From IMG/VR virus record IMGVR_UViG_3300032032_000001, positions 64,001 to 128,000 of that record: a stretch of 64,000 nt of DNA. One strand, written 5' to 3'. The notes under the pieces are model-generated. The model was not told where the DNA came from. It did no database searches and saw only the letters and a list, made by a program, of their open reading frames with translations. The DNA is from a virus. The position numbers and the translations under genes were made by a program. Position 1 is the stretch's first letter; the number at the start of each line of letters is the position of its first letter. Shown in pieces: positions 3 to 52,494 of this stretch.

Positions 3-3000
3 ACCGTTAAAACTACAAGTGGTGACACTAAAGAAATCACCGTTAAAGAGCACACTAGGGAACTTGGTTACCAAGAAAGAGTTAAGCAGATTTTGGCCGA
101 AGAGGGTGTGTCTGAGACAACTGAACTATTTGACCCCGAGACTGGAAAGAGTCTGGGAGAGGTACTGGTAGGCCAGCACTACACTCTTAAGTTAATGCAT
201 CAGGTGGATAAGAAGCTTCGAGCAAGGGCGCATGGGTACGGGCACGACTATGATGCCAACCTCGTCCCTAAGGGCGGCGGGGAGTCCGGTGCTGCTCAGA
301 GGTTTGGGGAACTAGGTCTATATGCAATGCTTGCACACGGCGCGACCTCAAATATACGAGAGGCACTGACCTACAAGAGCGATAAGGCGCAAGACGAAGT
401 TTGGACAGCTGTGCAGACAGGGGCGATCTTACCGGCACCAAAATCCTCGTTCGCATATGAAAAGTTCCTTGCGTACATGCAGGGACTAGGCCTCAACGTG
501 GAGAAGGAGGGCAACGGGTTAGTTGTCAGTCCTCTCACGGAAAAGCAGATTAAAGAAGCGTCTAACGGGGAGATCAAAGACGGAAGCAAGGTGATCAGAG
601 GGAAAGACCTGAAGCCTGAAAAGGGCGGTCTTTTTGATGAGACCGTGACCGGAGGTCCCGGCGGGAAGCACTGGGCACATATGGTGCTTGGGATGTCCAT
701 GCCCAACCCGATGTTTGAGAAGTCAGTCAGATCATTACTCGGTATCACCGGGAAGCAGTACGACGGCATTGTCGATGGCTCTCTGGGGTTTGATGAGAAC
801 GGGGATGTTGTGCCAGCAGCCGATGGCATTCAGACGGGGCCCGAGGCATTAACGAGGGCGCTGGGTAGCATCAACGTAGATAAAGATTTAGCGAGCGCCA
901 AGAAAGACATAAAAACAGCTCGTAGGAACAATTTGGATAAGCTGAACAAGAAGATCAAGTATCTTCTCATGCTTAAGAAAAATGGTCTTTCGCCAAAAGA
1001 GGCGTACACGACATCAGTTGTTCCGGTTCTACCCCCCGTATTCCGACCAATCACGGCTATGGAGGGCGGTGACTTAAACATCGATGGCACAAACATGCTT
1101 TACAGAGACATCGCCATCCTCAGCCAAAAGCTCAAAGAGTCCACCGGGGTCCTTCCCGAGGAAGCCATCTCCGCCCTTCGAGGCGACCTGTATGACGCTG
1201 TTGATGCGTTGATGGGGACATCCACGCCCTCTGAGTCGGCCACCATGACGGACGGGCAAGCCCGCCCACCCGGAATCCTCACCATCCTGTCCGGCAGGCA
1301 GTCGCCCAAGCAGAGCTTTTTTCATAAGCGCATCTTGGATCGAAAGCAGGACATTTCTATGCGGTCGGTGATTGTTCCCAACATGGATCTGCACTTGGAT
1401 GAAATCGGCCTTCCTAGAAAAGGGGCCATGAAAATATACAGACCATTTGTGGTGAAAGAGCTTGTTAGAATGGGGTACACGCCCCTTAGGGCGCGTGAGG
1501 AGATCGAGAAGAAAACGCCCCTTGCGGATAGAGCGCTTGAGGTTGCCGTAAAGAAGCGGCCCGTGTTCTTTAAGCGAGACCCTGTCCTGCATAAGTTTGG
1601 GATTATGGCCTTCCGCCCCAAGCTTCACGACGAATCATCTATTCATATCCACCCCCTGGTGACCGGCGGCTTTAACGCCGACTTTGACGGCGACACGATG
1701 GCTGTGTTTCTTCCTGTGTCCCAGGAGTCTATCGACGAAGCGGAAAAACTACTCCCGTCCAAGAACCTGTTTAACCCCGCCACTGGAAAGGTCATGTACC
1801 AGCCCACATTGGAGGGGCAGCTTGGACTGTTCCTGCTTACGCAGATGGGGAAGAATACCAAGAAGAGCTTTGGCTCGGAAAAGGAAGCGATAGCCTCTGC
1901 GAAAGCGGGGGACACCGCTATGTCTGACGTTGTTTCTGTTGGCGGGAAAAAGACTACGGCAGGTAGATTATTATTCAATAATGCGCTGCCCTCTAAAGTC
2001 CGTTCAGACAAGCTTCTTACTGATCCAGACATGGTTATGGGGAAGAAGAATCTCCAGGCAGTCCTTCGTGGCATTGCTACCAAGTCGCCAGCCGAGTTTC
2101 AGGTAGCGGTTGATAAGATTAAAGATCTTGGGTTTGGGCACGCTTACAATATCGGGTTCTCGTTCAACCTCGGAGACTTTGACGCGATGAGAGATCTTCG
2201 GGAAAAGAAGATGAAGGGGGCGCACGCTAAGGAGGCGGTTATCCGCAAGCAAGAGCGGATGAAGCTCATATCCCCGGAGGCCGCAGAAAAGAAGATCATA
2301 GATCTGTACACGGAGGTCACACAGGATTTATCCACAGAGGCGAAAAAGATCTTGGACAAGAAAGGCAACAAGTTGAGGACGATGGAGAAAGCTGGGGTGA
2401 AGCCCGCCTGGGCTCAGTTGCAGCAGATGCTTATTGGTCCGATGCTGTTGGAGAACGCTAAAGGGCGCGTCATCCCAGTGCCTGTTGATCGATCATACTC
2501 GGAAGGGTTGCGGTCATCCGACTATTGGGTTGCCTCCTCCGGCGCTCGAAAAGGCCTTATTGAAAAAGTCCAGTCTGTGCAAAAGCCTGGAGCTTTGAAC
2601 AAACAGCTTGCAAATACAATGATGTCGTACATCGTCACCGCAGATGACTGCGGGACAACTAAGGGCATCGCCCTAGATGCCGCTGACTCAGACCTTGTTG
2701 ATAGATTTACGGCTAAGCCTATAAGCGCTAAAGGGTTACGAGTTTCGGCCAACACCGCACTAACTCCTGCCCTAGTGTCACGGATAAAGAGCGCTAAGGT
2801 GTCTAAGATTGTCGTTAAGTCCCCTCTCAAGTGTGAGGCTAAAAAAGGGCTGTGCTCAAAGTGCTACGGGCTACAAGACAACGGACTCCCGATCTCAAAA
2901 GGTACGAATATTGGCGTTATAGCCGGTACCGCGCTGGGAGAGCGGGGGACCCAGTTGTCTATGAAAACCTTTCATACTGGTGGTGTCGCTGGCTCATCCG

Positions 3001-3689
3001 GCGGAGTCGTTGGTGGGATAGATCGCATTAGCCAACTACTCAAGATGCCAGCAACTCTCCCCAACGCTGCTGTTCTCTCCCCAGCAACCGCGACTGTTTC
3101 CAGTATCAAAGAAAGCCCCGTGGGTGGTTTTGATATGACAATCGGGAATGAGGATATTTACGTCCCTGCCGGGAGAACCCTGAAGGTAACTAAGGGCTCC
3201 AAGGTGAAGAAGGGGCAGCAGATTTCCAGTGGTGTAATTGACCCACGGGATCTTCTATCTAAAACCAACGTAGATACCGTACAGGCATACATCGCTGATG
3301 AGATTAATAGGGTTTATAAAGCAGAGGGCATTAAGCGCCGAAACATCGAAGTGGTGACTAAGGCGATAACTAATCTCGGCAGAGTAACTAACCCTGGCGG
3401 GTCTGATTTTATCAAAAATGACTACATCTCTATATCACACGCTAATGCCCTAAATAGATCTGGGAAGCTGAAGGAGCCGTTGGTGGTTGAGCCAACGCTT
3501 CGTGGAATTGAGACCCTTCCCCTAGACCAAACAACGGACTGGCTGGCAAGGCTTCAATACCGGAAGTTAAAGGAGACATTTATTAGGGCCGCCAACGAGG
3601 GCTGGGAATCTGATATACATGGAGTGCACCCAACCCCAGGCATCGCCTATTCGGCAGAGTTTGGGAAAGGTAAGGAGGGCCCCTACTGA
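3..3689 (+). CDS. rpoBC: Multisubunit DNA-directed RNA polymerase, beta C-terminus fused to beta' (5'-truncated by the window edge)
   Basis: Frame is open from nt 3. Beta C-terminal motifs YTLKLMHQVDKKLRAR and AQRFGELGLYAMLAHGA run in frame into beta' motifs KPEKGGLFD, VVPVLPPVFRP, RDPVLHK, catalytic NADFDGD, GARKGL, C-terminal Zn site (DDC...C...CSKCYG) and trigger loop GTQLSMKTFHTGG. Confidence 0.95.
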   Translation, partial: TVKTTSGDTKEITVKEHTRELGYQERVKQILAEEGVSETTELFDPETGKSLGEVLVGQHYTLKLMHQVDKKLRARAHGYGHDYDANLVPKGGGESGAAQRFGELGLYAMLAHGATSNIREALTYKSDKAQDEVWTAVQTGAILPAPKSSFAYEKFLAYMQGLGLNVEKEGNGLVVSPLTEKQIKEASNGEIKDGSKVIRGKDLKPEKGGLFDETVTGGPGGKHWAHMVLGMSMPNPMFEKSVRSLLGITGKQYDGIVDGSLGFDENGDVVPAADGIQTGPEALTRALGSINVDKDLASAKKDIKTARRNNLDKLNKKIKYLLMLKKNGLSPKEAYTTSVVPVLPPVFRPITAMEGGDLNIDGTNMLYRDIAILSQKLKESTGVLPEEAISALRGDLYDAVDALMGTSTPSESATMTDGQARPPGILTILSGRQSPKQSFFHKRILDRKQDISMRSVIVPNMDLHLDEIGLPRKGAMKIYRPFVVKELVRMGYTPLRAREEIEKKTPLADRALEVAVKKRPVFFKRDPVLHKFGIMAFRPKLHDESSIHIHPLVTGGFNADFDGDTMAVFLPVSQESIDEAEKLLPSKNLFNPATGKVMYQPTLEGQLGLFLLTQMGKNTKKSFGSEKEAIASAKAGDTAMSDVVSVGGKKTTAGRLLFNNALPSKVRSDKLLTDPDMVMGKKNLQAVLRGIATKSPAEFQVAVDKIKDLGFGHAYNIGFSFNLGDFDAMRDLREKKMKGAHAKEAVIRKQERMKLISPEAAEKKIIDLYTEVTQDLSTEAKKILDKKGNKLRTMEKAGVKPAWAQLQQMLIGPMLLENAKGRVIPVPVDRSYSEGLRSSDYWVASSGARKGLIEKVQSVQKPGALNKQLANTMMSYIVTADDCGTTKGIALDAADSDLVDRFTAKPISAKGLRVSANTALTPALVSRIKSAKVSKIVVKSPLKCEAKKGLCSKCYGLQDNGLPISKGTNIGVIAGTALGERGTQLSMKTFHTGGVAGSSGGVVGGIDRISQLLKMPATLPNAAVLSPATATVSSIKESPVGGFDMTIGNEDIYVPAGRTLKVTKGSKVKKGQQISSGVIDPRDLLSKTNVDTVQAYIADEINRVYKAEGIKRRNIEVVTKAITNLGRVTNPGGSDFIKNDYISISHANALNRSGKLKEPLVVEPTLRGIETLPLDQTTDWLARLQYRKLKETFIRAANEGWESDIHGVHPTPGIAYSAEFGKGKEGPY

Positions 3690-12270: not shown

Positions 12271-13968
12271 GTGTATTCGATAAAATCATTACCGACTGCT
12301 CTAGAAAGAGAGCCAGCAAGCCGATGGATGGTGTCTTTAGCTATGTCGCTTCCGTATGAAATAGCAGAGGAAAGCCCGGATCGGTCGTTGTTTCCTACTG
12401 AGTTTGTTGGGTCTTTCTTCAACATCCCCTCCCTGGGTGAGCTTGAGAAGTTCTCCTTTAGGGGGCGTAGGTACCTTGTGCCTATCTACGACACGCCCGC
12501 CAAGAGGCTTCTGCTTCAGTGCGGTCGTCAGGTTGAGAAAAGTACGACCCTGGGTAATATTATCCTAACATACTCAATGCTACGCAGACACTTTAGATCA
12601 CTGTTTGTCAGCCCGACGCAGCAGCAGACTGAGACATTCTCTAGGGATAGAATTGCTACACCTACCGAGCTTTCGTCAACCCTTAAAGCGTTTACTCGTG
12701 GGGATGGGACTAAAGACAACGTATTGTACAAGAAGTATGTAACCGGTTCGGATATTACGCTGAGATACGCCTTCCTACACGCTGATCGTGTTCGTGGTAT
12801 CTCCGCAGACATGCTCTTGCTAGATGAGATCCAGGACATTTTGACAGATGTGATTCCTGTTATTGAGGAGTCCCTGTCCCACTCGCCGTTTAAGATTCTT
12901 AGGTATTCCGGCACGCCCAAAAGCCTGGACAATACGATCAGCTACTACTGGAATCAGTTTTCCACCCAAAACGAATGGGTAATCCCCTGCGAGGCGTGCA
13001 ATAAGTGGAACGTTATTGGTGAGAACAGTATTGGCCCCGTAGGGCTTATTTGCGACAAGTGCGGCAAGTCTATAGATCCTGATCATCAAAGAGCGCAATG
13101 GGCATCCATGAGATCTCCGGAGTGGCTTACTAATCCGCCTGTGAATACTCCGTTTGAGGGTTACAGGATCCCCCAGGTGATCGCCCCGTGGATAAACTGG
13201 AACGACATTCTAGACAAACAAAAGCGCTACAGCAGGGCGCAGTTCTTTAACGAGGTTCTTGGGCTTGGCTACGACTCTGGTGAAAAGCCGATTACCCGAG
13301 ACCTTCTGATTGAACACTGTTCCAATGAACCGAATAACCTAGAAACAGCACTAAAGCTCAATGCGCGAGGAACCGGGGCCTGCTGCATGGGGATTGACTG
13401 GGGAACGGGAGAAAACACCTACACCGTCCTTACTGTTGGGAAATACTTCGGTAATAAGTTTAGATATATCTACTTCAAGCAGTTTTCTGGACCTGAGGCT
13501 GAGCCAGAAGTGATGATGAAAAACATTGTCAACTTAGTGCATCAATTTAAATGCGAATGTATCGGCGTTGACTACGGCGGTGGGTTTGACCGCAACGATA
13601 AGCTGATCCGAACTTTTGGGATAACACGTATCGCTAGATATCAGTATGTAAATACGCGGCGCATATACTTCGACAAAACGCTTGCAAGGTTTATGGTTAA
13701 TAGAACCGAAGCGTTGATGTCGGTCATTAATGCGTTAAACAGGAAAGATACATTCATGCTCCCCAGGTGGGATACTTTTGAGACGCCCTTTGCAAGCGAC
13801 ATGCTTTCTGTATTTACTGAGTACAACGAGGCCCGAAGAACGACTATTATTAATAAGACTCCTGGGACTACGGACGATACATTGCACGCAATGACTTACT
13901 GTTTCCTAGCGTCTATGATAAAGCACCCAAGACCTGATATATTAGCACCGAGTGGAGACAAAGACTAG
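12271..13968 (+). CDS. terL: Terminase large subunit (lambda GpA-like); true start probably near 12325-12343
   Basis: CGRQVEKST Walker A, ADRVRGIS, LLLDEIQD Walker B, YSGTPK, CxxC..CxxC zinc site, QFFNEVLG, GIDWG nuclease motif, DDTLHA. Confidence 0.92.
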   Translation: MYSIKSLPTALEREPASRWMVSLAMSLPYEIAEESPDRSLFPTEFVGSFFNIPSLGELEKFSFRGRRYLVPIYDTPAKRLLLQCGRQVEKSTTLGNIILTYSMLRRHFRSLFVSPTQQQTETFSRDRIATPTELSSTLKAFTRGDGTKDNVLYKKYVTGSDITLRYAFLHADRVRGISADMLLLDEIQDILTDVIPVIEESLSHSPFKILRYSGTPKSLDNTISYYWNQFSTQNEWVIPCEACNKWNVIGENSIGPVGLICDKCGKSIDPDHQRAQWASMRSPEWLTNPPVNTPFEGYRIPQVIAPWINWNDILDKQKRYSRAQFFNEVLGLGYDSGEKPITRDLLIEHCSNEPNNLETALKLNARGTGACCMGIDWGTGENTYTVLTVGKYFGNKFRYIYFKQFSGPEAEPEVMMKNIVNLVHQFKCECIGVDYGGGFDRNDKLIRTFGITRIARYQYVNTRRIYFDKTLARFMVNRTEALMSVINALNRKDTFMLPRWDTFETPFASDMLSVFTEYNEARRTTIINKTPGTTDDTLHAMTYCFLASMIKHPRPDILAPSGDKD

Positions 13969-21847: not shown

Positions 21848-23044
21848 ATGTCTAGTGTACCTAGCGAAGTCCTCAACGAGTTGTTTGTAAGCAAACTCGA
21901 TTCTGAGGCTGGAAAAGAAAAGATCGCTGCTCTTGGTGGCGATTACATTAAAGATCGTTTGCGTGAGGAGAGCTTTGCTCGCAAAATTCTTCCCCCGAAG
22001 ACGGTTTCACGCTCTGACCTTCAGGTCAGTGTTAGTCACGATACCCTGGTTAAGATCGTAGAGGTCGAACCCCAGAGCCGTGCCATGAGTATGTCTTTCC
22101 GAGGTCAGCCCTCGGTTAAGTACTACACTGGTCCGCGCTTTGAGGTGCCCTTCCACACGGTGGGCTCCGAGCGATACGAGCAGACTGAGCAGGAGTTGAT
22201 GGCATACACGATGCCTATTACGGAGATCATCCGTCGTAACATCGTGAACGACATCCAAGAGGTTGAGGACACTGTGTTCTTGAGCCACATGGAGTCGGCA
22301 TGTCAATCGCTTCAGCAGGATGCACAGGATCTTGTCTTTGGTGCTGATTACGCGGCAAACGTTTCTTTCACTGCAAAGAACGTTAACGCAAACAGCGTCC
22401 CTGAGATTGGTAAGTGTAAGGGTGTTGATGTCCTTCAAAACGCGGACGCTGGCTTAGCCGACGGTCTCGCAAACGACGAGGACCTTGCGTTCCCCGTCCA
22501 GAAGGATGACTTCATTAAGTTGTTCCAACTCTTCACGGGCTCGGGTAACCGAGGTTCGCGTCTGCGTTGTGATCAATTCCTGATGACTGATACCGATTTT
22601 GAAGATCTTAACGCTTGGGTCCATGCGGACATGGGTGAGAAGATTGTCGGTGAGACTACTGTTGACGGGTACAAGTACTCTACGGTTATTGGCCGTAAGT
22701 TTGTTCGTACCTTGAAGACGGACATTCTCCGCCCCGGCAATATCTACGCCTTTGCTGCCGCTGAGTACCTTGGTGGCTTCTTGCTTCTCAACAAGACGAA
22801 GTTCTACGCTGATAAAGAGCGTAACCGAGTCTCGTTCGAGGCGTGGGAAGATATCGGCATGTACATCGGCAACGTTGCTGGTGTCCGTAAGCTTGAATTG
22901 TATGCAGGTTCTGTTGAGACCGTTACTGCGACTCCCAACACGAACACGCGTGCTGCTCGCTTGCCTGTTGATGAAACCGATCTCGGTAAGAAGAACAACC
23001 TCGTCGAGGAAGGCCAGACCTTCCCCGCCGTAACGTCCTTCTAA
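21848..23044 (+). CDS. Major capsid protein (HK97 fold)
   Basis: 398 aa; RLREESFARKILPP and DIQEVED patterns; strong AAGGAGG RBS; followed by a UUCG hairpin; lies after protease and scaffold genes. Confidence 0.8.
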   Translation: MSSVPSEVLNELFVSKLDSEAGKEKIAALGGDYIKDRLREESFARKILPPKTVSRSDLQVSVSHDTLVKIVEVEPQSRAMSMSFRGQPSVKYYTGPRFEVPFHTVGSERYEQTEQELMAYTMPITEIIRRNIVNDIQEVEDTVFLSHMESACQSLQQDAQDLVFGADYAANVSFTAKNVNANSVPEIGKCKGVDVLQNADAGLADGLANDEDLAFPVQKDDFIKLFQLFTGSGNRGSRLRCDQFLMTDTDFEDLNAWVHADMGEKIVGETTVDGYKYSTVIGRKFVRTLKTDILRPGNIYAFAAAEYLGGFLLLNKTKFYADKERNRVSFEAWEDIGMYIGNVAGVRKLELYAGSVETVTATPNTNTRAARLPVDETDLGKKNNLVEEGQTFPAVTSF

Positions 23045-26802: not shown

Positions 26803-29800
26803 ATGGCAACGCTTACTCGTCCAGGCGTCGAAATCGCACAAGAAATTACTGCGGGTGCGCCGACAATATTGACCCCAACTTTGGTTCCGTGCCTAGTTGG
26901 GCCTTGTTTTCAAATCGTCTCCCCTCTGACCGAGGATGGTGCTTTGAACACCGGGGCTATCGTTTCGGTAGCCGCCCTTGTTCAGAGTGATCAACCGCTT
27001 CCAGCGGCCCTGAGTTTATCAGGTCGTTCGATGCAGATTAAGGTCAACAATGGGCAGGTGCAAACCATCAACTTCCCAGTGACTATTAACGGCGAGGCAA
27101 TCGACCACGCATTAACTGTTAATACGATCAACAAGCAGCTCACGGGCGCTGTTGCGGAAATCGTTGGTGATAAGCTCAACATCCGGACCAACTCAAAGGG
27201 TTCCAGTCAGAGTATTGAGTTAATCAATATTGCTGACCCAAATGTTGAGGCATATTCACTCTTAGAGATTAACCAACTTGTTGGTGTGGTTGTTACTGGC
27301 CAGAGCCAGTACACTAATATCTCTTACACTGTCCCCTACTCCAGTTTTCCGTCTCCGATGGCTTCCGTGGACGAGGTAGTCATTACAGACGAAAACACTA
27401 AGATGTACCGATACTTCGGTGGGACTCTTAGAGAATTCTCTGAGGATAGTGCAATTAATACGAACGCTTACGCGTGGAACGTTATGCAGGTTGCTGACCA
27501 TACGGTCGCCTCCGCACATAGCCCCGCGTTTGGAGACTCTAAGTCTTGGATGTTCGGCAAGGTTAAGGCTGGGTCTAAGACAGACACCATGCAGCACCTT
27601 GGTTCCGATGCCTACCTAGAGTTCCCCCTCTGCCATGATGTGGCCCCTGATGGAGGCTCCCTCGGAGTAATGACCCAGTGGCCAGACCCCCGTGGAAAGA
27701 ACAAGATTGTTCTCCACGCTAAGGGTATGAGTGACTACACGAGCAGCGGAATTCTCTCTTCTATGGGGACTGCCGCAAGTCTTGGTAATGCTGGTAATAA
27801 TCTTTCGCTAACCATGTCGCACAACGCTGGTCTTGGTGATGGCGCTACGGTTGTTTATACGCCGGGTACCGGTCTAGAAGTGACCGTTTCCGACGACACC
27901 ACTTTCGCCACGTTGGCTGCTGCTATTGCTGCATCGCCATCCTTGGCTGACGCCTCGGGCGAGATGTCCGTAACGCTGGAAAGTGATGTGGACGACCCTG
28001 CCGTAGCAACTGTGCGTAATTTCACCGCAGGTAACCCTGCTGGAGCACCTTGGAACAACGCCAACACGTGTTCCCTTAACCTTTCTTACGGTTCTGACCC
28101 TGTTGACTTTAGCATCGACGCTCCAGTCGCTGAGGGTTGTGGCCAAGGTGAGGCTAACAACGAGAACCTCTCGCAGGCACATGTTTGTGGCGCTGTTCCA
28201 ATCGGCGGCGGCGACACGGCAACCGACCTAGGCATCGCTGGGGAGACCATTAGTGTCTCTATCGACGGTGGCGCAGCTGTCTCCCATACCTTTATTGGTG
28301 GGGACCCTGTTATTGGTGGTCTGAACACCGCCCTGACTGGGGTAGGTACTGCGACGCAGGTTGGTTATGCCTTAAGCAATGATATTGGCGAGACTTTTCA
28401 GCCTATCCGAATCACCTCTGTCTCAGACAACGGGCACGACTCTACTATTGAAATCTCCGCAGATAACGCACTTGTTATCCAGAGACTGTTTAGTGGTTCG
28501 GCCTCCGGTTCTGGCTCAGCCGCCCCGGCTGCTCAGACTGCCGCTCTGAATGAAGATCGTGGCGGGCTCCTTACCTCTGCTGCGTACAACGCTGTCACTG
28601 GGCAGAATGAGTCGGTCAACCAGCGAGCCTTGGTTCCTGGTAGCGTGACGATTCAAATCGACGGAGCCGTCGCCATTGGCTGTATCGCGGGAATCGGTGA
28701 CGATACCTGTAACGCCACCGCTGGTAACGCAGCCGCTACTGTTAATATTGAGGTTGACGGCGGAGCGACCAGTTTTGACGTTAATATGCCCGCTGGCGGA
28801 TGGCCGGGAGACCCGGGCGCTGCCGCCGCTGCTATGCAGGCGGGAATTGTTGCCGCCGGTGGTGGCTTAGATTCCCAGATCTGTGCTTCAGAGCACGCGG
28901 GAACTGTTGTCATCTCCAGGTTCTCCGGCAATGTTGGCGACTCTATCGCCATCCTCAGTACCGGTGACGCTGATCTTGCTGCGTACTTTGCGAACACGGA
29001 TGTGACATCCACTTGCGAAGCAACCTCCATCACTCTTAGGGACTCTGGCGCAAGCCCTGCGTTCCGAGTTGAATGTACGGCTGCCTCCACTGGATCTCAG
29101 ATTGGTGTAGCTGGAACTCTTGATGAGTGGGTTATGGGTGGAGCGGAGGCCGACAATACTGGTAGAGCCGCGACACAGATCAACTACTCCTCGGGTGACA
29201 TTAACTTCGCTTTTGCTGGTGACGATTTCGCGGGCGCTTACGCCGATGCACATCCGATTACCATGAAGCTCGGTGCCGCACCTAGCGCTACGGTTACTTA
29301 CAACCGATCTTGGGCCAATACGGTTCAAGCGGCTAAGCAGGGGTATACCGGAAAGCTTCATCACGGTCAGAGCAACAGAACGATTCTCTCCGACTTTGTT
29401 TCACACGATGGCAATGTCCTTGGTCGCGTTTCTGCGATTGAAGACTTCGCTGCTGGGGGTGCTACTTTTAGTGGAGCCCAGGTTGTCCTTTCTGAGTTCG
29501 CTCTGGACAACAAGCAGCTCTCTAACAAGTGGTACATGACTGCTGACGGCGTAGTTGCCGGATCTGTTGACAACCCACGTGTTGAGCCTGAGGCAAGCGG
29601 AAACGATCTTGAGCAGATCTACACTCTGAAGCACGCTCTTAACCGAGACTCTTCGGGCGTAGCGATCTCCGGAGGCGCAGACATCTATGTTGACTACAGC
29701 GCTCTCCGAAGAGACGTTACAGGATCTGCTGCGGACCCAGGATTATTAGTCTTTAATAGTATTGCTGAAGTAGAGGCAAATATCGGGCCTATTAGTCCTG

Positions 29801-31155
29801 ATAACCCCCTTGCTTTCGGTATGTACTTGGCGTTCCTCAACACCTCAAACATCAACATCGCAGCATTCGGTGTCGATGAGGTTACTGCGGATGCGCCACA
29901 GGGGACTGTTAAAGCATACGCTGAGGCACTTGACTTCTTACAGATGAAGGAAGTCTACGCTCTTGCTCCTCTCACGCATGACATGGAAGTGTTCAAGGTG
30001 TTCAACCAACACGTGAACGACATGTCGGCACCTACGGGCAAGAAAGAGCGGATGGTGCTTTGCTGTCCAGAGCTTCCTTCTGAGAAGCCCTCGATCCTAG
30101 CCTTCTCCTCAACGGACTTCGAGATTAGTCCAGAGGGTGGCGGAAAGTGGAGACTAACTGACGCGAATGGTGGAAACATCATGCTGGCTCTAAATGAGTC
30201 CACTGTTAAGGATGCTAACGGAAACCCGCTCGACCTGAGCGTTGGCGACTCGTTGCTCCCTGAGCAGGATGTTTATATCGACCGTGAGGGAGATCCCTAC
30301 CGATACCTGATCACCGCACTTCCCGCTGCCGATGCCGTAATCATCGAGCCTGCGAATGATGTGTGGCGTCCAGGCGTCTACGGCCCAGGAACGGGTGGCA
30401 ACGCTGACGCGTATTACAACAACGCTAATCCTGAGGATTGGGCAGCTACTGGAGAAGGTGCTTCCATCTTCGTTAGACAGGCAGCTACTGATTTGTCTAC
30501 CACTGGTGGCAAGCTCGCTACCTGTGAGACTCTCGCGGAGATTGCTGGCGGACCTACCGGGTTCCAGAACCGAAGACTCGTACTTGTTCTTCCAGACCAA
30601 GTTGGTGTTTCGATTGGTGGCCTTGAGTCCGCTGTGAACGGCTACTACTTATGTGGTGCCATCGCTGCAATGATTGGTCAGCAGAATCCATCACAACCGT
30701 TTACCAACCTGCCTATGGTTGGGTTTACGCGCCCGATTGGATCCAATGACTTGTTCAGCGAAAACGCTATGTCCACGGCTGCTGCTGGTGGGATTTACTG
30801 GGTTATTCAGGACAATCCTGGCGGAGCGCTGGTGTCAAGGCACCAATTAACAACGGACCTCACTTCTATTAAGACTAGAGAAATGTCTATTCTTAAGGCT
30901 GTGGATTACGTTGCTAAATTAATGAGAGGACAGGTTAAGCGATTTATCGGTCGCAATAACATCACTAAGCAGCTTCTCGAAGCCATCTCTTTGGGGATGC
31001 AGGGATCGCTCGCTAGTGTAACTGGTTCGGTTGTAGCTGAGGCCACTCTTGATTCTTTGACTCAAGACTCGGACCAGCCGGATACAATTAGAGCGGAAGT
31101 GACCTTGGTTCCGTTCTATCCCGCAAACTACATCAAGATCACTATTTACGTGTAA
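26803..31155 (+). CDS. Contractile tail sheath protein with large internal insertions
   Basis: N-terminal RPGVEI; C-terminal VSRHQLTTD...REMSILKAVDYVAK...FIGR...PFYPANYIKITIYV sheath signature. Confidence 0.88.
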   Translation: MATLTRPGVEIAQEITAGAPTILTPTLVPCLVGPCFQIVSPLTEDGALNTGAIVSVAALVQSDQPLPAALSLSGRSMQIKVNNGQVQTINFPVTINGEAIDHALTVNTINKQLTGAVAEIVGDKLNIRTNSKGSSQSIELINIADPNVEAYSLLEINQLVGVVVTGQSQYTNISYTVPYSSFPSPMASVDEVVITDENTKMYRYFGGTLREFSEDSAINTNAYAWNVMQVADHTVASAHSPAFGDSKSWMFGKVKAGSKTDTMQHLGSDAYLEFPLCHDVAPDGGSLGVMTQWPDPRGKNKIVLHAKGMSDYTSSGILSSMGTAASLGNAGNNLSLTMSHNAGLGDGATVVYTPGTGLEVTVSDDTTFATLAAAIAASPSLADASGEMSVTLESDVDDPAVATVRNFTAGNPAGAPWNNANTCSLNLSYGSDPVDFSIDAPVAEGCGQGEANNENLSQAHVCGAVPIGGGDTATDLGIAGETISVSIDGGAAVSHTFIGGDPVIGGLNTALTGVGTATQVGYALSNDIGETFQPIRITSVSDNGHDSTIEISADNALVIQRLFSGSASGSGSAAPAAQTAALNEDRGGLLTSAAYNAVTGQNESVNQRALVPGSVTIQIDGAVAIGCIAGIGDDTCNATAGNAAATVNIEVDGGATSFDVNMPAGGWPGDPGAAAAAMQAGIVAAGGGLDSQICASEHAGTVVISRFSGNVGDSIAILSTGDADLAAYFANTDVTSTCEATSITLRDSGASPAFRVECTAASTGSQIGVAGTLDEWVMGGAEADNTGRAATQINYSSGDINFAFAGDDFAGAYADAHPITMKLGAAPSATVTYNRSWANTVQAAKQGYTGKLHHGQSNRTILSDFVSHDGNVLGRVSAIEDFAAGGATFSGAQVVLSEFALDNKQLSNKWYMTADGVVAGSVDNPRVEPEASGNDLEQIYTLKHALNRDSSGVAISGGADIYVDYSALRRDVTGSAADPGLLVFNSIAEVEANIGPISPDNPLAFGMYLAFLNTSNINIAAFGVDEVTADAPQGTVKAYAEALDFLQMKEVYALAPLTHDMEVFKVFNQHVNDMSAPTGKKERMVLCCPELPSEKPSILAFSSTDFEISPEGGGKWRLTDANGGNIMLALNESTVKDANGNPLDLSVGDSLLPEQDVYIDREGDPYRYLITALPAADAVIIEPANDVWRPGVYGPGTGGNADAYYNNANPEDWAATGEGASIFVRQAATDLSTTGGKLATCETLAEIAGGPTGFQNRRLVLVLPDQVGVSIGGLESAVNGYYLCGAIAAMIGQQNPSQPFTNLPMVGFTRPIGSNDLFSENAMSTAAAGGIYWVIQDNPGGALVSRHQLTTDLTSIKTREMSILKAVDYVAKLMRGQVKRFIGRNNITKQLLEAISLGMQGSLASVTGSVVAEATLDSLTQDSDQPDTIRAEVTLVPFYPANYIKITIYV

Positions 31156-40130: not shown

Positions 40131-41207
40131 CTATGTTTTCTTCCTCGGGGAAATGTTTCTTTTCCTCCGCTGATTAACACTCTCCTTAGCGACTGCGCCG
40201 CTAGAACCTGTATATAACTTTAGGGCAGCAGGATCTCCCTCCACTCTTACAGAGTCTGGGGTTAAGATTATCCTTATCCCCGTTAGGTTGATCACTAAAT
40301 CCTCCCCGTACCCTGAGCATTTTGTCAAGGCTGGGAACCACTGCCTAAGTTGTCCAATTTCATATTGCAGGGTGCCTACGTGTGCAGGCTTAGTTGTTGG
40401 TGACTCTTGTTTAGAGTCTACCCTGAATCTATGTATCGCCTCTCTTTCAAAGCGTGTGTAGTTTATACCTGTCAGTCTGGATACAGTCTGACTCACTCTC
40501 TCTGCTTCAGAGTTAGCTCTTACTGAGTCAGTCTTTCTACCGACTTCTTTTTCCAGAGCTAACGTCAGTCTCACAAGATCAGCACTTCTTCTCTTAATGT
40601 CCTCTGCTTGTTCTCTGAACCATGCAAATTCCTTAAGAGCATCATCTAGCTTATCCTGAGTATCTAACTTGTAGTCAGTAGTTCCACTACATCTTTCTTC
40701 TCTCATATCGTGTATTTTACGAATTAATTCTTCCGATTCCAATACAAGTGTTTCCTGATCAGAAAGTAACTTTCCTAAGTCTACTTCGTCTTTTTCAACA
40801 GTACCACCTAACATCTCTACTCTAGAATTAAATATAGAGAAGTCAGTTTTACTGAGAGAAAAGTTCTGTAGGCAAGATCTAGGTTTTGCTACCAGTACTT
40901 GAGGGATACTTCTACCTATATAGGGTCTTTGACTTCTGTAAGAAGCTAACCCTAAAACAAGTGTAGCTGTTTCAGCATCCATTACTCTGTAAGGCATGGA
41001 TACTTGGACATGGTCGTTCTCAGTTAATTTCCAGAGATACACATGTCCCTTCTCTATAGGGGTAAGGTCATCATCGTAAAAAGCTATCTCTTCAGGATCA
41101 GCTGGGTCACAGAATAAGTTCTGCGAGTACTCAGAGGTACGTTTTGTGATGAGACCTTTGATTAGTATAGGTGGGTTTGCCCTATCGTTCACAAACCGTA
41201 ATTCCAT
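40131..41207 (-). CDS. Hypothetical coiled-coil protein, AT-richer than its surroundings
   Basis: 358-aa ORF with AAGGAG RBS, bracketed by palindromic boxes. Confidence 0.75.
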   Translation of the reverse strand: MELRFVNDRANPPILIKGLITKRTSEYSQNLFCDPADPEEIAFYDDDLTPIEKGHVYLWKLTENDHVQVSMPYRVMDAETATLVLGLASYRSQRPYIGRSIPQVLVAKPRSCLQNFSLSKTDFSIFNSRVEMLGGTVEKDEVDLGKLLSDQETLVLESEELIRKIHDMREERCSGTTDYKLDTQDKLDDALKEFAWFREQAEDIKRRSADLVRLTLALEKEVGRKTDSVRANSEAERVSQTVSRLTGINYTRFEREAIHRFRVDSKQESPTTKPAHVGTLQYEIGQLRQWFPALTKCSGYGEDLVINLTGIRIILTPDSVRVEGDPAALKLYTGSSGAVAKESVNQRRKRNISPRKKT

Positions 41208-42917: not shown

Positions 42918-43911
42918 CTAATTCCTCCTTTTTCTCATCCTCATCCTCTTGCGCCATATAGGCCTCATAATCAGAACCATCGTCGTCTTTAGTTGGGGTA
43001 ACCAACTCTTCGACATCTACACCGTGCACAAGCTCAAGCTCCTGCAAGAGTTCTTCTTTTGAGATCTCTTGCGCGTAGAACTTGGTGTAAAGCTCCATGG
43101 CATCATTGGCTCCGATATCATTTCCATCGTAAGCCTTCTGTAGCTCAGGAAGCTCAAAGGGGAAGTCGAGGGCCTCAATAACCTCCTCAACCTTTCCAGC
43201 AGCATCATATGCACCATGGACTCCTCCCATAGCCCAATCCGTATCGTCGTCCATTGCCCAGGATGTGTCGTAAACCTGACCACCAGTACCGATGCGGGTA
43301 TACCCACTACCGGTGTACCAACTCTTTGTTTTTGCGGCGGGAGCCTTAGTCACACTGATACGCTCGGCGCGGAAGGTTGCCTTCTCTACATACTTCTCAA
43401 TAATGTCTTCCGCCCAGCCATCTGGGAGGATGTCAATTTGATCAACAGCATATGAGCACTTCTCAAACGAGTACCGAATAGGTGACATCATGTCGATTCT
43501 CAGATTGAGATCACCCTTCTTATTGGTGATCACAGAGATACACACCGAATCAAAATCAAACTTCTCAATTTGACTCTCATCAGTACCGCTGTGTCCCGTG
43601 TCCATGTTTACGTGACTATGCCACCAAACAACAATCTGCTCAGACTTGATCCCCTTCTCCCGTAGGTCGAAAGTTAGATCCACAAGAGCTTCGTCATCTA
43701 GAACAGTGGATGTCCCAGAGCACAACTGCTTAACAGGGAAGAACTCTGTTACGTAGAAGTCTTCACCGACTCCCGCGTCATCCTTTTCTTCTTCGGTGGC
43801 GATGATTCCCATCGCACTTATTTCAATGTCACATTTATTTGTTAGTCTAAACATTTGCTGGTAGGCCTTCTGGGAAAACCTAACCGTCGGCTTGCTGAGT
43901 ACTTTCATCAA
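42910..43911 (-). CDS. JAB/JAMM metalloprotease (DUB-like) with acidic C-terminal extension
   Basis: EISAMG glutamate and exact JAMM motif HSH-x7-S-x2-D (WWHSHVNMDTGHSGTD). Confidence 0.85.
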   Translation of the reverse strand: MMKVLSKPTVRFSQKAYQQMFRLTNKCDIEISAMGIIATEEEKDDAGVGEDFYVTEFFPVKQLCSGTSTVLDDEALVDLTFDLREKGIKSEQIVVWWHSHVNMDTGHSGTDESQIEKFDFDSVCISVITNKKGDLNLRIDMMSPIRYSFEKCSYAVDQIDILPDGWAEDIIEKYVEKATFRAERISVTKAPAAKTKSWYTGSGYTRIGTGGQVYDTSWAMDDDTDWAMGGVHGAYDAAGKVEEVIEALDFPFELPELQKAYDGNDIGANDAMELYTKFYAQEISKEELLQELELVHGVDVEELVTPTKDDDGSDYEAYMAQEDEDEKKEELDD

Positions 43912-44974
43912 TAACTCCTAGTTTCTGTATTTGGGTAACTGCCGCTTTAGCGACATCAATAAATTCTACAAATTCACCCAAAACACAGGACCCCTTAGAG
44001 AGTCCCGGGTGGGAGTTTCGATGCCAGCGCATACATTCAGATGCACTCATTCCACAGTCCTCAACAGGACCAGTACTTTCACAGCCACACTTGTCTATCC
44101 AAAGACCCTTCCCACATGCACAGAGCTTGTGGTCCCAGCGATTCGCTATGCCAAACTTATGTAGTCGCGCATACGGATCGACGTGGTTGTATGTGATTAA
44201 ATATTCTGTGGTTGTTACTATTACGTTAGCGATGTCTTTGTTCTTCATGTGCTGAAGAAGCATCCTCTGAACGTTCCCCAAGCAGGGACTACCATCTGTT
44301 TGGATATGCGGATGGGAGTACGATGAGAAGCTGATATTGTTACCCGCTTGTCGGAACGAGGCTGTAACGCCCTGAAAACCATTCGCTTGGTAAGTGTAAC
44401 GGATCTCTACCTTGAACTTACCAAAGACCTGATCAAGGAAGCCTCCGAAGCCATCCTTCAGCTTAATTGTGTTTGTTGTCCACGATAGAATTGAGACCCC
44501 GCTTATGGGATCCTCAACATAGTTTACCGGGACGCGCTTATCTATAAACGAGTCAACTGACTTAAGCATGAACGCTCTATTAGAGAGCGAGGACTCATCG
44601 TATAGATCATCAAAATTCGACAGAAACGAATTCTTAGAATGAATCTCCGCAGACAGGTTACGCTGCTCATCAGCTAACTGGCTAACACGGGACGACTTAT
44701 CCAGGTACTTACGCCTTGCAATCTCACTTCTTGACTTGGCCGCCATGTAATCAGAGTACTTCTGGATCTCACGGCTTTTCTGTTTTTCATATATTCTTTG
44801 CCGAGCGGCAGCCTTTGCTTCAACAGCTTCTTGACTCTTCACTACTTGTGCGAGCCTCTTACCAAGACGCTCACTGTCTTCACGTGCGGATGAAGCGGCA
44901 GACTCTACAATACTGTCTAGATCTTTTATTAATGTCTCATCTTCGGCACACAGCCGAATAGAAAATGCGTTCAT
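43880..44974 (-). CDS. E2-like (UBC-fold) conjugating enzyme with N-terminal coiled coil and Cys/His-rich C-terminus
   Basis: SHPHIQTDGSPCLGN matches the E2 HP(N/H)..G..CL catalytic signature; gene lies between the JAB and Ubl genes. Confidence 0.72.
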   Translation of the reverse strand: MNAFSIRLCAEDETLIKDLDSIVESAASSAREDSERLGKRLAQVVKSQEAVEAKAAARQRIYEKQKSREIQKYSDYMAAKSRSEIARRKYLDKSSRVSQLADEQRNLSAEIHSKNSFLSNFDDLYDESSLSNRAFMLKSVDSFIDKRVPVNYVEDPISGVSILSWTTNTIKLKDGFGGFLDQVFGKFKVEIRYTYQANGFQGVTASFRQAGNNISFSSYSHPHIQTDGSPCLGNVQRMLLQHMKNKDIANVIVTTTEYLITYNHVDPYARLHKFGIANRWDHKLCACGKGLWIDKCGCESTGPVEDCGMSASECMRWHRNSHPGLSKGSCVLGEFVEFIDVAKAAVTQIQKLGVIDESTQQADG

Positions 44975-49884: not shown

Positions 49885-49961
49885 TGGCACCCCCTGGAGG
49901 ATTCGAACCTCCGACCCTCGGCTTAGAAGGCCGATGCTCTATCCAGCTGAGCTAAGGGGGC
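49885..49961 (-). tRNA. tRNA-Arg(UCU)
   Basis: GCCCCCTTAGCTCAGCTGGATAGAGCATCGGCCTTCTAAGCCGAGGGTCGGAGGTTCGAATCCTCCAGGGGGTGCCA; cloverleaf with encoded CCA. Confidence 0.95.
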
Positions 49962-51812: not shown

Positions 51813-51888
51813 TGGTGGGCCGCCTGGGACTTGAACCCAGAACCTGCGGATTAAAAGTCCGATGCTCTACCTGTTGAGCTAACGGCCC
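51813..51888 (-). tRNA. tRNA-Lys(UUU)
   Basis: GGGCCGTTAGCTCAACAGGTAGAGCATCGGACTTTTAATCCG...GTTCAAGTCCCAGGCGGCCCACCA. Confidence 0.95.
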
Positions 51889-51901: not shown

Positions 51902-51987
51902 TGGTGGGGCTGGAGGGACTCGAACCCTCAATCCCATAGGGCGTCAGATTTTAAGTCTGATGCGTATACCAATTCCGCCACAGCCCC
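51902..51987 (-). tRNA. tRNA-Leu(UAA)
   Basis: GGGGCTGTGGCGGAATTGGTATACGCATCAGACTTAAAATCTGA + long variable arm + GTTCGAGTCCCTCCAGCCCCACCA. Confidence 0.95.
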
Positions 51988-52397: not shown

Positions 52398-52494
52398 TGG
52401 TACGCCCGGTGGGACTCGAACCCACGACCTTGCGCTTATCAGGCGCTAATACGAGGTATAAGCTCGCTGCTCTAACCAACTGAGCTACGGGCGC
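52398..52494 (-). tRNA. Atypical 97-nt tRNA-Ile with two anticodon-like arms (UAU and GAU)
   Basis: GCGCCCG TA GCTC-AGTTGGTTA-GAGC A GCGAG-CTTATAC-CTCGT ATTA GCGC-CTGATAA-GCGC A AGGTC GTGGG-TTCGAGT-CCCAC CGGGCGT A CCA. Confidence 0.85.

Follow-up and report, generated by a model that had tools for sequence, protein, structure and literature searches.

AUA decoding and isoleucine identity in bacteria

Isoleucine identity and the decoding of isoleucine codons are thought to share a single anticodon arm. Bacteria therefore need either lysidine, the modification made by TilS, or an adapted isoleucyl-tRNA synthetase (IleRS) in order to read AUA. The discriminator base and the anticodon are strong isoleucine determinants, as is t6A37 for the bacterial-type IleRS, while C4-G69, the 12-23 pair and C29-G41 are minor ones (PMC9976931). 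A tRNA with a UAU anticodon is charged poorly by the Escherichia coli IleRS, and Mycoplasma mobile needed a change in its IleRS to charge such a tRNA (PMC3575796). Synthetases can also bind anticodon-like hairpins that do not occupy the normal anticodon position, the thrS operator being an example (PMC9976931). The locus analysed here, in a phage record, encodes a tRNA-Ile(UAU) with a second hairpin that displays GAU; a full-text search of the literature found no description of a tRNA of this kind.

A tRNA-Ile(UAU) gene with two anticodon-like arms

The window, i.e. the whole stretch of DNA that was analysed (64,000 nt), contains a 97-nt gene at positions 52398-52494 of the minus strand. ARAGORN calls it tRNA-Ile with anticodon tat, and it scores 63.6 bits against the Rfam tRNA family RF00005, the gathering score of which is 29. 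This 97-nt gene is a real tRNA. Its parts are as follows (all read from the sequence):

52398-52494, minus strand: whole tRNA-Ile(UAU) gene with encoded CCA (also ARAGORN and Rfam RF00005)
52488-52494, minus strand: 5′ strand of the acceptor stem, GCGCCCG, pairing with 52402-52408 over 7 bp, with G1-U72 and including C4-G69
52469-52485, minus strand: D-arm, GCUC-AGUUGGUUA-GAGC, with U12-A23 and G15; A26 comes next
52451-52467, minus strand: arm 1, the decoding anticodon arm, GCGAG-CUUAUAC-CUCGU, with UAU at 52458-52460 (also ARAGORN)
52447-52450, minus strand: inter-arm linker, AUUA
52432-52446, minus strand: arm 2, an anticodon-like hairpin, GCGC-CUGAUAA-GCGC, with GAU at 52438-52440
52426-52431, minus strand: class-I-type variable loop, AAGGUC, whose last base, C48, forms the Levitt pair with G15
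52409-52425, minus strand: T-arm, GUGGG-UUCGAGU-CCCAC
52402-52408, minus strand: 3′ strand of the acceptor stem, CGGGCGU
52398-52401, minus strand: discriminator A73 (52401) and encoded CCA (52398-52400)

The acceptor 5′ strand and the D-arm are separated by the spacer UA, and arm 1 lies directly 3′ of position 26. The original prediction, made from the letters of the window alone, had described two tandem arms with 7-nt loops, UAU first and GAU second, in a tRNA 20 nt longer than usual; this description matches the sequence base for base. The acceptor stem, D-arm, T-arm, A73 and CCA that it had called normal are indeed so, the sequence, ARAGORN and Rfam being in agreement. The canonical UAU loop CUUAUAC, with its U33 and A37, together with A73 is what characterizes a TilS-independent AUA-reading tRNA-Ile; the molecule also carries C4-G69 and U12-A23. 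In folding computations the five-arm cloverleaf (-36.1 kcal/mol) had the same energy as the minimum-free-energy fold (-36.2 kcal/mol), and the pairing probability of arm 2 was 0.65-0.79.

The gene in the phage record

The virus record is a single sequence of 148,364 bp with 50.3% G+C, estimated to be about 83% complete. It encodes a terminase, a helicase, a multisubunit-type RNA polymerase and a ribonucleotide reductase; the terminase has many relatives among metagenome proteins, some of them from Tara samples. The tRNA set of the record consists of four genes only, Arg-UCU, Lys-UUU, Leu-UAA and Ile-UAU, all on one strand and all reading A-ending codons. The two-armed gene is flanked by two small ORFs on the same strand, and the three other tRNA genes (ARAGORN and Rfam) lie nearby:

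51902-51987, minus strand: tRNA-Leu(UAA), neighbour
51813-51888, minus strand: tRNA-Lys(UUU), neighbour
49885-49961, minus strand: tRNA-Arg(UCU)

AUA makes up 20% of the isoleucine codons of the record, in which, at about 83% completeness, neither a TilS nor a class I synthetase (IleRS included) was found to be encoded. The use of AUA is very uneven. Two large plus-strand genes contain 0 AUA in 398 codons (21848-23044) and 1 in 1450 (26803-31155); two minus-strand genes contain 10 in 358 (40131-41207) and 8 in 364 (43880-44974). This may reflect expression class.

Two further observations concern the large genes of this phage. The ORF at 93-3689 (plus strand), which runs off the window start, contains Rpb1_1/2/5 (β′) domains preceded by Rpb2_7, the end of a β subunit, and its relatives are single proteins of about 2,000-3,000 aa that hold both β and β′ domains; the phage thus seems to encode a fused multisubunit-type RNA polymerase. 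The terminase homologues P0030, P0036, P0040, P0055, P0057 and P0092 are 945-987 aa long and contain an extra PF14528 domain, mostly with PF14890 too, which we take to be intein or homing-endonuclease domains; the terminase copy of the window (12271-13968) is uninterrupted.

A family of two-armed tRNAs in phages and viral contigs

BLAST searches against GenBank phages detected genes of the same build in Vibrio phage henriette 12B8 (93 nt), in more than 35 Vibrio harveyi/campbellii phages of the Luma/Achelous type (93 nt) and in Synechococcus phage SynMITS9220M01 (95 nt). As the original prediction had supposed, such genes are already annotated: those of henriette, Luma and SynMITS9220M01 appear in GenBank simply as tRNA-Ile. 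In the Luma/Achelous-type phages an ordinary tRNA-Ile(GAU) directly precedes each two-armed gene. In Vibrio phage Luma this is a 76-nt gene (L002:1416-1491), the anticodon loop of which, CCGAUAA, has C33 instead of the near-universal U.

Viral contigs were scanned with a pattern in which the D-stem, a YUUAUR loop and the T-loop were fixed and separated by a long gap, the sequence of arm 2 being left free. The scan returned at least 116 stretches, in which ARAGORN recognized at least 78 unique long tRNA(UAU) genes. Among the matches listed, about 95% of these genes had Y-W-G-A-U-N-R in arm 2, and 74 of the 77 that could be parsed had a 7-nt arm 2 loop of the form Y-(A/U/G)-G-A-(U/C)-N-R. The base counts in the 73 anchored arm 2 loops among the matches listed, which are carried by 31 distinct stems, are as follows:

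Position 32: C 51, U 22 (pyrimidine in 100%)
Position 33: A 63, U 8, G 2 (the clade of the window has U)
Position 34: G 73
Position 35: A 73
Position 36: U 71, C 2
Position 37: A 37, U 31, G 4, C 1
Position 38: A 61, G 12 (purine in 100%)

In a MAFFT alignment of 77 unique homologues the G of GAU was invariant and its A and U were conserved at 90% or more. The tRNA helices were 95.9% paired overall and showed covariation: the acceptor helix was 99.6% paired, with changes on both sides in seven of seven pairs, arm 1 covaried at five of five pairs, and the D helix was nearly invariant. The arm 2 stem had changes on both sides in four of four pairs, its three inner pairs being 90-99% paired. A73 was present in every parsed homologue. 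The motif WGAU occurred in the variable region of 73 of 78 long tRNA(UAU) genes and of 18 of 146 other long-arm tRNAs (Leu, Ser and Tyr) from the same loci, counts that, like the others for this family, ignore kinship among the sequences, so that the associated statistics are only indicative. When the scan was reversed, so that the motif of arm 2 was fixed and the anticodon of arm 1 free, UAU was the anticodon in 80 of 87 unique viral hits. The conservation of the GAU of arm 2 is far beyond chance; selection acts on this arm and on its GAU, and both are linked to the UAU anticodon. The original prediction would have fallen had the second loop varied freely among homologues; GAU was instead found to be kept on covarying stems.

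The layout of the molecule resembles a tandem duplication of an anticodon arm, and arm 2 could be a neutral, functionless relic of such an event. Its conservation contradicts this, the loop being invariant on 31 different covarying stems in phages and, as described below, in several bacterial phyla; we give this explanation hardly any credence. Processing of the RNA to an ordinary tRNA of 76-77 nt, by removal of one arm as an intron or through cleavage and ligation, is also very improbable. The 20 extra nucleotides form a compact insert, and a class I tRNA would remain with either arm alone. However, each arm covaries as a hairpin and the loop of each is conserved, as would not be expected of a discarded segment. 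Moreover, a group I intron would need far more than 20 nt, and bulge-helix-bulge splicing is not known from bacteria or phages. The original prediction had seen no sensible intron at the 37/38 position, and this holds: the 20-nt insert is a conserved hairpin lying outside the anticodon loop, so that the gene does not have the form of an intron-containing tRNA.

Pairing between the two loops, with the AUA of arm 2 kissing the UAU of arm 1, was considered as well. It fits the loops with GAUA (37 of 73) only and not those with GAUU (31 of 73); since kissing is possible in the GAUA subgroup alone, it was rejected as a general explanation.

Several variants were noticed during these scans. Arm 2 reads GAC, a valine anticodon, in two viral contigs (L077 and L086) and in three genome contigs (L122, titled Acidobacteriota, L213 and L233). 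Two other viral contigs (L025 and L109) have a long tRNA(UAU) whose second hairpin has the loop CUAGCAA or CUUAGCAA, with no GAU motif. Viral L045 and bacterial L131, L189, L209 and L216 have one more small hairpin, located between arm 1 and the arm with GAU, and thus six helices in all. Finally, viral L008, L094 and L101 contain tRNA-like genes, 95-99 nt long, in which the acceptor stem, D-arm and T-arm are normal but the anticodon stem encloses about 30 nt, starting CUUAUGU; ARAGORN gives 2- or 4-base anticodons for them, and they seem to be an anomaly distinct from the two-armed family.

Position of the second arm

In the parsed viral genes arm 1 always follows position 26 directly. Among the matches listed, the linker from arm 1 to arm 2 is 1-4 nt long in 71 of 74 genes, and 5-7 unpaired nucleotides of the NGGUY or NCGAU type follow arm 2 on its 3′ side, also in 71 of 74. 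The contiguous stem of arm 2 is only 3-5 bp long, mostly 3-4. Position 15 and the last base of the variable segment covary as the Levitt pair (A15-U48 in 46 genes, G15-C48 in 11, mixed combinations in none). Since the Levitt pair is formed with the last base after arm 2, a complete class-I-type variable loop follows this arm, and the extra hairpin is placed between positions 43 and 44.

With its 7-nt loop, the 5-7 unpaired nucleotides after the arm and the Levitt pair with the last of these, the molecule is not a class II tRNA. Its 7-bp acceptor stem and 5-bp T-stem are not the 8/4 or 9/3 arrangement of allo-tRNAs, nor does its length of 97 nt, with a second hairpin, agree with a class I body of 76-77 nt in the style of M. 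mobile. The molecule may just as well be seen as a body like that of tRNA-Ile(GAU) into which a UAU arm has been inserted 3′ of position 26; under either description the two arms are a fork at the 26/44 hinge. The arms are about equal in length, so both loops should lie similarly far from the elbow. Simultaneous stacking of the two on the D-stem is impossible, and the geometry of the fork is only predicted.

These features bear on the idea that the tRNA is a dual decoder, either arm being able to enter the A site, arm 1 for AUA and arm 2 for AUC and AUU. In the clade of the window, the loop of arm 2, CUGAUAA, is a perfect anticodon loop and a normal variable loop comes after the arm; the phage record has no other tRNA-Ile. 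However, 65 of 73 family members among the matches listed have A or G at position 33 in place of the universal U, the stem has only 3-4 bp in most members, and Luma phages carry an ordinary tRNA-Ile(GAU) 5 nt upstream. Decoding by both arms is thus improbable.

The meaning of AUA in the phage lineage

The amino acid inserted at AUA was approached by aligning window positions 1-25000, codon by codon, with two close syntenic relatives, L264 (82% amino acid identity) and L266 (69%). The 112 AUA codons of the window that were aligned were matched by AUA in 39 cases, by AUC or AUU in 34, and by codons for valine in 14, threonine in 10 and leucine in 9. For comparison, UUA was replaced by other leucine codons in 79 cases and by isoleucine codons in 4. 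In columns of terminase homologues, AUA sites resembled AUY sites (I 0.45, V 0.21, L 0.12). Columns of much more distant RNA polymerase homologues were rich in leucine at AUA sites but ambiguous (L 0.32, I 0.23; n=13), and we give them little weight. Judging from these alignments, AUA is isoleucine in this phage lineage, which argues against charging with leucine or serine.

A class II tRNA charged with one of these two amino acids, and recoding AUA as nev-tRNA(UAU) or allo-tRNA(UAU) would, could have been suspected from the long extra arm and A73; the nematode nev-tRNA(UAU) is leucylated in vitro (PMC4300185), and the leucine-rich polymerase columns point the same way. The far more frequent exchange of AUA with AUC or AUU than with leucine codons, the isoleucine-like terminase columns, the 7/5 rather than 8/4 acceptor and T stems and the build of the extra arm, unlike that of class II, all oppose it. 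We regard such recoding as extremely unlikely.

Two-armed tRNAs in bacteria and the loss of TilS

The same pattern, with arm 2 again left free, was run on bacterial and archaeal genomes. ARAGORN recognized at least 46 long tRNA(UAU) genes, and a Y-N-G-A-(U/C)-N-R loop was present in 41 of 46 among the matches listed; of the five exceptions, at least three are archaeal intron-containing genes, which look different. Carriers among the matches listed include Actinomyces, Microbulbifer, Marinobacter, Pseudoxanthomonas and Acidobacteriota, and in the latter position 33 of arm 2 is often G. The Actinomyces genes are 81-86% identical to the window tRNA; their arm 1 is identical to it and their arm 2 is GUGC-CUGAUAA-GCAC. 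Within the Actinomyces clade the arm 2 stem shows a compensatory change, from GUGC/GCAC to GUGU/ACAC, and the linker drifts. In A. timonensis the gene adjoins those for a DM13-domain protein and a Sir2-family protein, and no phage genes were found among its matched neighbours.

A sample of 201 genomes of the family of Actinomyces timonensis (Actinomycetaceae) was inspected for the two-armed gene and for TilS. The former was present in 12 genomes. TilS (TIGR02432) was detected in 186 and missing from 15, PF01171 giving the same picture. None of the 12 carriers had TilS, compared with 186 of the 189 non-carriers. Three TilS-less genomes each had two CAU tRNAs (initiator and elongator), while two TilS-positive relatives each had three. 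The carriers therefore lack TilS and, where this was checked, tRNA-Ile2(CAU), and no other AUA-reading gene was found in the Actinomyces two-armed clade. As no other gene of this kind was found in the carriers, the two-armed design is taken to work in ordinary cellular translation, as the cell's own AUA reader. The Actinomyces carriers are probably one clade, and their 12 genomes thus likely reflect a single evolutionary event. Three Actinomycetaceae genomes without TilS are not carriers (G101, G134 and G199). In G101 there is a CAU tRNA similar to tRNA-Ile2, which points to an incomplete assembly as the reason why no TilS was matched.

The cellular setting matters for another proposal of the original prediction, namely that the second arm is a decoy for anticodon nucleases. 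As a decoy or shield, arm 2 would protect against host nucleases that cut tRNA-Ile(GAU). Most carriers are phages, and phage tRNAs are known to counter tRNA-cleaving defences. Nevertheless, the arm has been kept, with a compensatory stem change, in chromosomes of Actinomyces, where it belongs to the cell's own AUA reader in a setting free of phage genes. This result weighs most against the decoy reading. A decoy could, besides, ride on any tRNA, so that the link to UAU (80 of 87) is left unexplained. The proposal is weakened accordingly, and we see little chance of its being correct.

The IleRS of carriers is not of one kind. That of A. timonensis is a eukaryote-like type 2 enzyme with a DUF5915 C-terminus, similar to MupA. 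Microbulbifer, which has the two-armed gene, has TilS as well and a type 1 IleRS with a zinc finger and the E. coli-type C-x-x-C-W motif. The Trp of this motif is linked to species that keep tilS, and the E. coli IleRS has it (Taniguchi et al. 2013, PMC3575796).

Class I tRNA(UAU) genes were seen in two genomes of the same order as Actinomyces (G425:C1:61914-61954 and G430:C3:1222-1262). Both genomes have TilS, and the class I tRNA(UAU) is therefore uninformative there on whether it is needed. A common origin of the Ile(UAU)-Leu(UAA) pair of the window and that of Actinomyces was considered and rejected, the Leu tRNAs being only as alike as tRNAs generally are.

A possible division of decoding and charging between the two arms

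The gene product is predicted to be an elongator tRNA that carries isoleucine to AUA codons. Arm 1, placed after position 26 as in any tRNA, would read AUA with its UAU anticodon, while arm 2 would show the host IleRS its usual GAU. A UAU tRNA could in this way be charged in any host, with neither TilS nor a UAU-adapted IleRS, and would be a portable AUA decoder. Such independence in charging would suit a phage, and acquisition of the gene would let a cell lose tilS.

That one arm serves charging and the other AUA decoding had been suggested in the original prediction, and it is the best supported of the roles proposed there, with GAU kept on covarying stems and tied to UAU; the conservation is observed, while IleRS as the partner of arm 2, and a fork geometry that permits it, are what we infer. 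The isoleucine identity features A38 and C29-G41 are found on arm 2 rather than on arm 1. Position 38 is a purine in 100% of arm 2 loops; in arm 1 it is C in 47 of 74 genes among the matches listed. The equivalent of C29-G41 occurs in 50 of 77 arm 2 stems and in 14 of 77 arm 1 stems.

Other facts speak against recognition by IleRS. Arm 2 is an imperfect copy of the tRNA-Ile anticodon arm, with A33 in 63 of 73 loops, A and U about equally frequent at position 37 and a stem of 3-5 bp, and in a few members the loop shows GAC or has an unrelated sequence. There are also tRNA(UAU) genes of class I, and the eukaryote-type IleRS of Actinomyces may accept UAU anyway. Bacillus subtilis can use a UAU suppressor that lacks a second arm (PMC3575796). 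Taking both sides together, we hold tentatively, with slightly more doubt than belief, that arm 2 is a recognition element for IleRS. The broader proposal, a new structural class of tRNA in which a UAU arm decodes and a GAU arm is read by IleRS, and which let Actinomyces lose tilS and tRNA-Ile2, is plausible but somewhat more doubtful.

Arm 2 might have a different built-in role. It might stiffen the 26/44 hinge in such a way that AUA is read by an unmodified UAU anticodon and AUG is not, or it might direct a modification enzyme or a maturation step, or stand in its way. The arm is placed exactly at the hinge where anticodon stem and D-stem meet, misreading of AUG is a known problem of UAU tRNAs (PMC3575796), and the arm has been retained in a cellular lineage (Actinomyces). 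The imperfect mimicry of an anticodon arm (A33, a variable position 37 and a 3-5-bp stem) also fits a partner other than IleRS. A purely mechanical role, however, leaves the near-invariant G-A-U, the pyrimidine at 32 and the purine at 38 unexplained while the stem sequence drifts. Nor is any other factor known to us that recognizes GAU within a 7-nt loop, which counts against a built-in role of this sort, and we consider it unlikely, although deserving of attention.

If arm 2 is indeed recognized by IleRS, a tRNA with its own recognition arm would add a third natural answer to the AUA problem, next to lysidine and an adapted IleRS. It would also account for the supply of AUA decoding by phages in different hosts and for the loss of an essential gene from a bacterial clade. 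Synthetic biology could borrow the design for orthogonal or anticodon-independent charging. Even with a partner other than IleRS, this is a widespread, strongly conserved five-arm tRNA that current tools silently annotate as 'tRNA-Ile'.

Comparison with known systems

The tRNA-Ile2(UAU) of M. mobile and the UAU suppressor of B. subtilis resemble the two-armed tRNA in that UAU reads AUA as isoleucine, with no lysidine, in bacteria lacking tilS; both are ordinary class I tRNAs, and that of M. mobile is charged thanks to a change at Arg865 of IleRS (PMC3575796). The two-armed tRNA differs from this type in having an extra GAU hairpin on the tRNA itself and in occurring with both types of IleRS. 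The standard bacterial system for AUA, tRNA-Ile2(CAU), whose anticodon is converted by TilS to contain lysidine, does the same job, i.e. it reads AUA as isoleucine, satisfies IleRS and avoids AUG. However, it needs a modification enzyme, and in the Actinomyces carriers TilS and the third CAU tRNA are both gone.

Class II tRNAs (Leu, Ser and Tyr) have a hairpin between the anticodon arm and the T-arm, as the two-armed tRNA does, and are 85-97 nt long. Their extra arms begin after position 45 and carry loops of 3-5 nt, with 1-2 nt before the T-stem. In the two-armed tRNA, by contrast, the hairpin is inserted between 43 and 44, its 7-nt loop resembles an anticodon loop, and a complete variable loop of the NGGUY type comes after it. 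The nev-tRNA(UAU) and allo-tRNA(UAU) share with it the UAU anticodon and a long extra arm, but nev-tRNAs have Leu-type arms and are leucylated, and allo-tRNAs have 8/4 or 9/3 acceptor and T stems and are serylated (PMC3333845, PMC4300185, PMC5389517). In the two-armed family the stems are 7/5, the discriminator is A73, the extra loop displays GAU and AUA apparently stays isoleucine. The operator of E. coli thrS offers a likeness of another kind, since there a hairpin that mimics the cognate anticodon loop recruits the anticodon-binding domain of the synthetase; mimics of the thrS type sit in mRNAs and regulate translation, whereas the mimic proposed here would be part of a tRNA and would serve its aminoacylation (PMC9976931).
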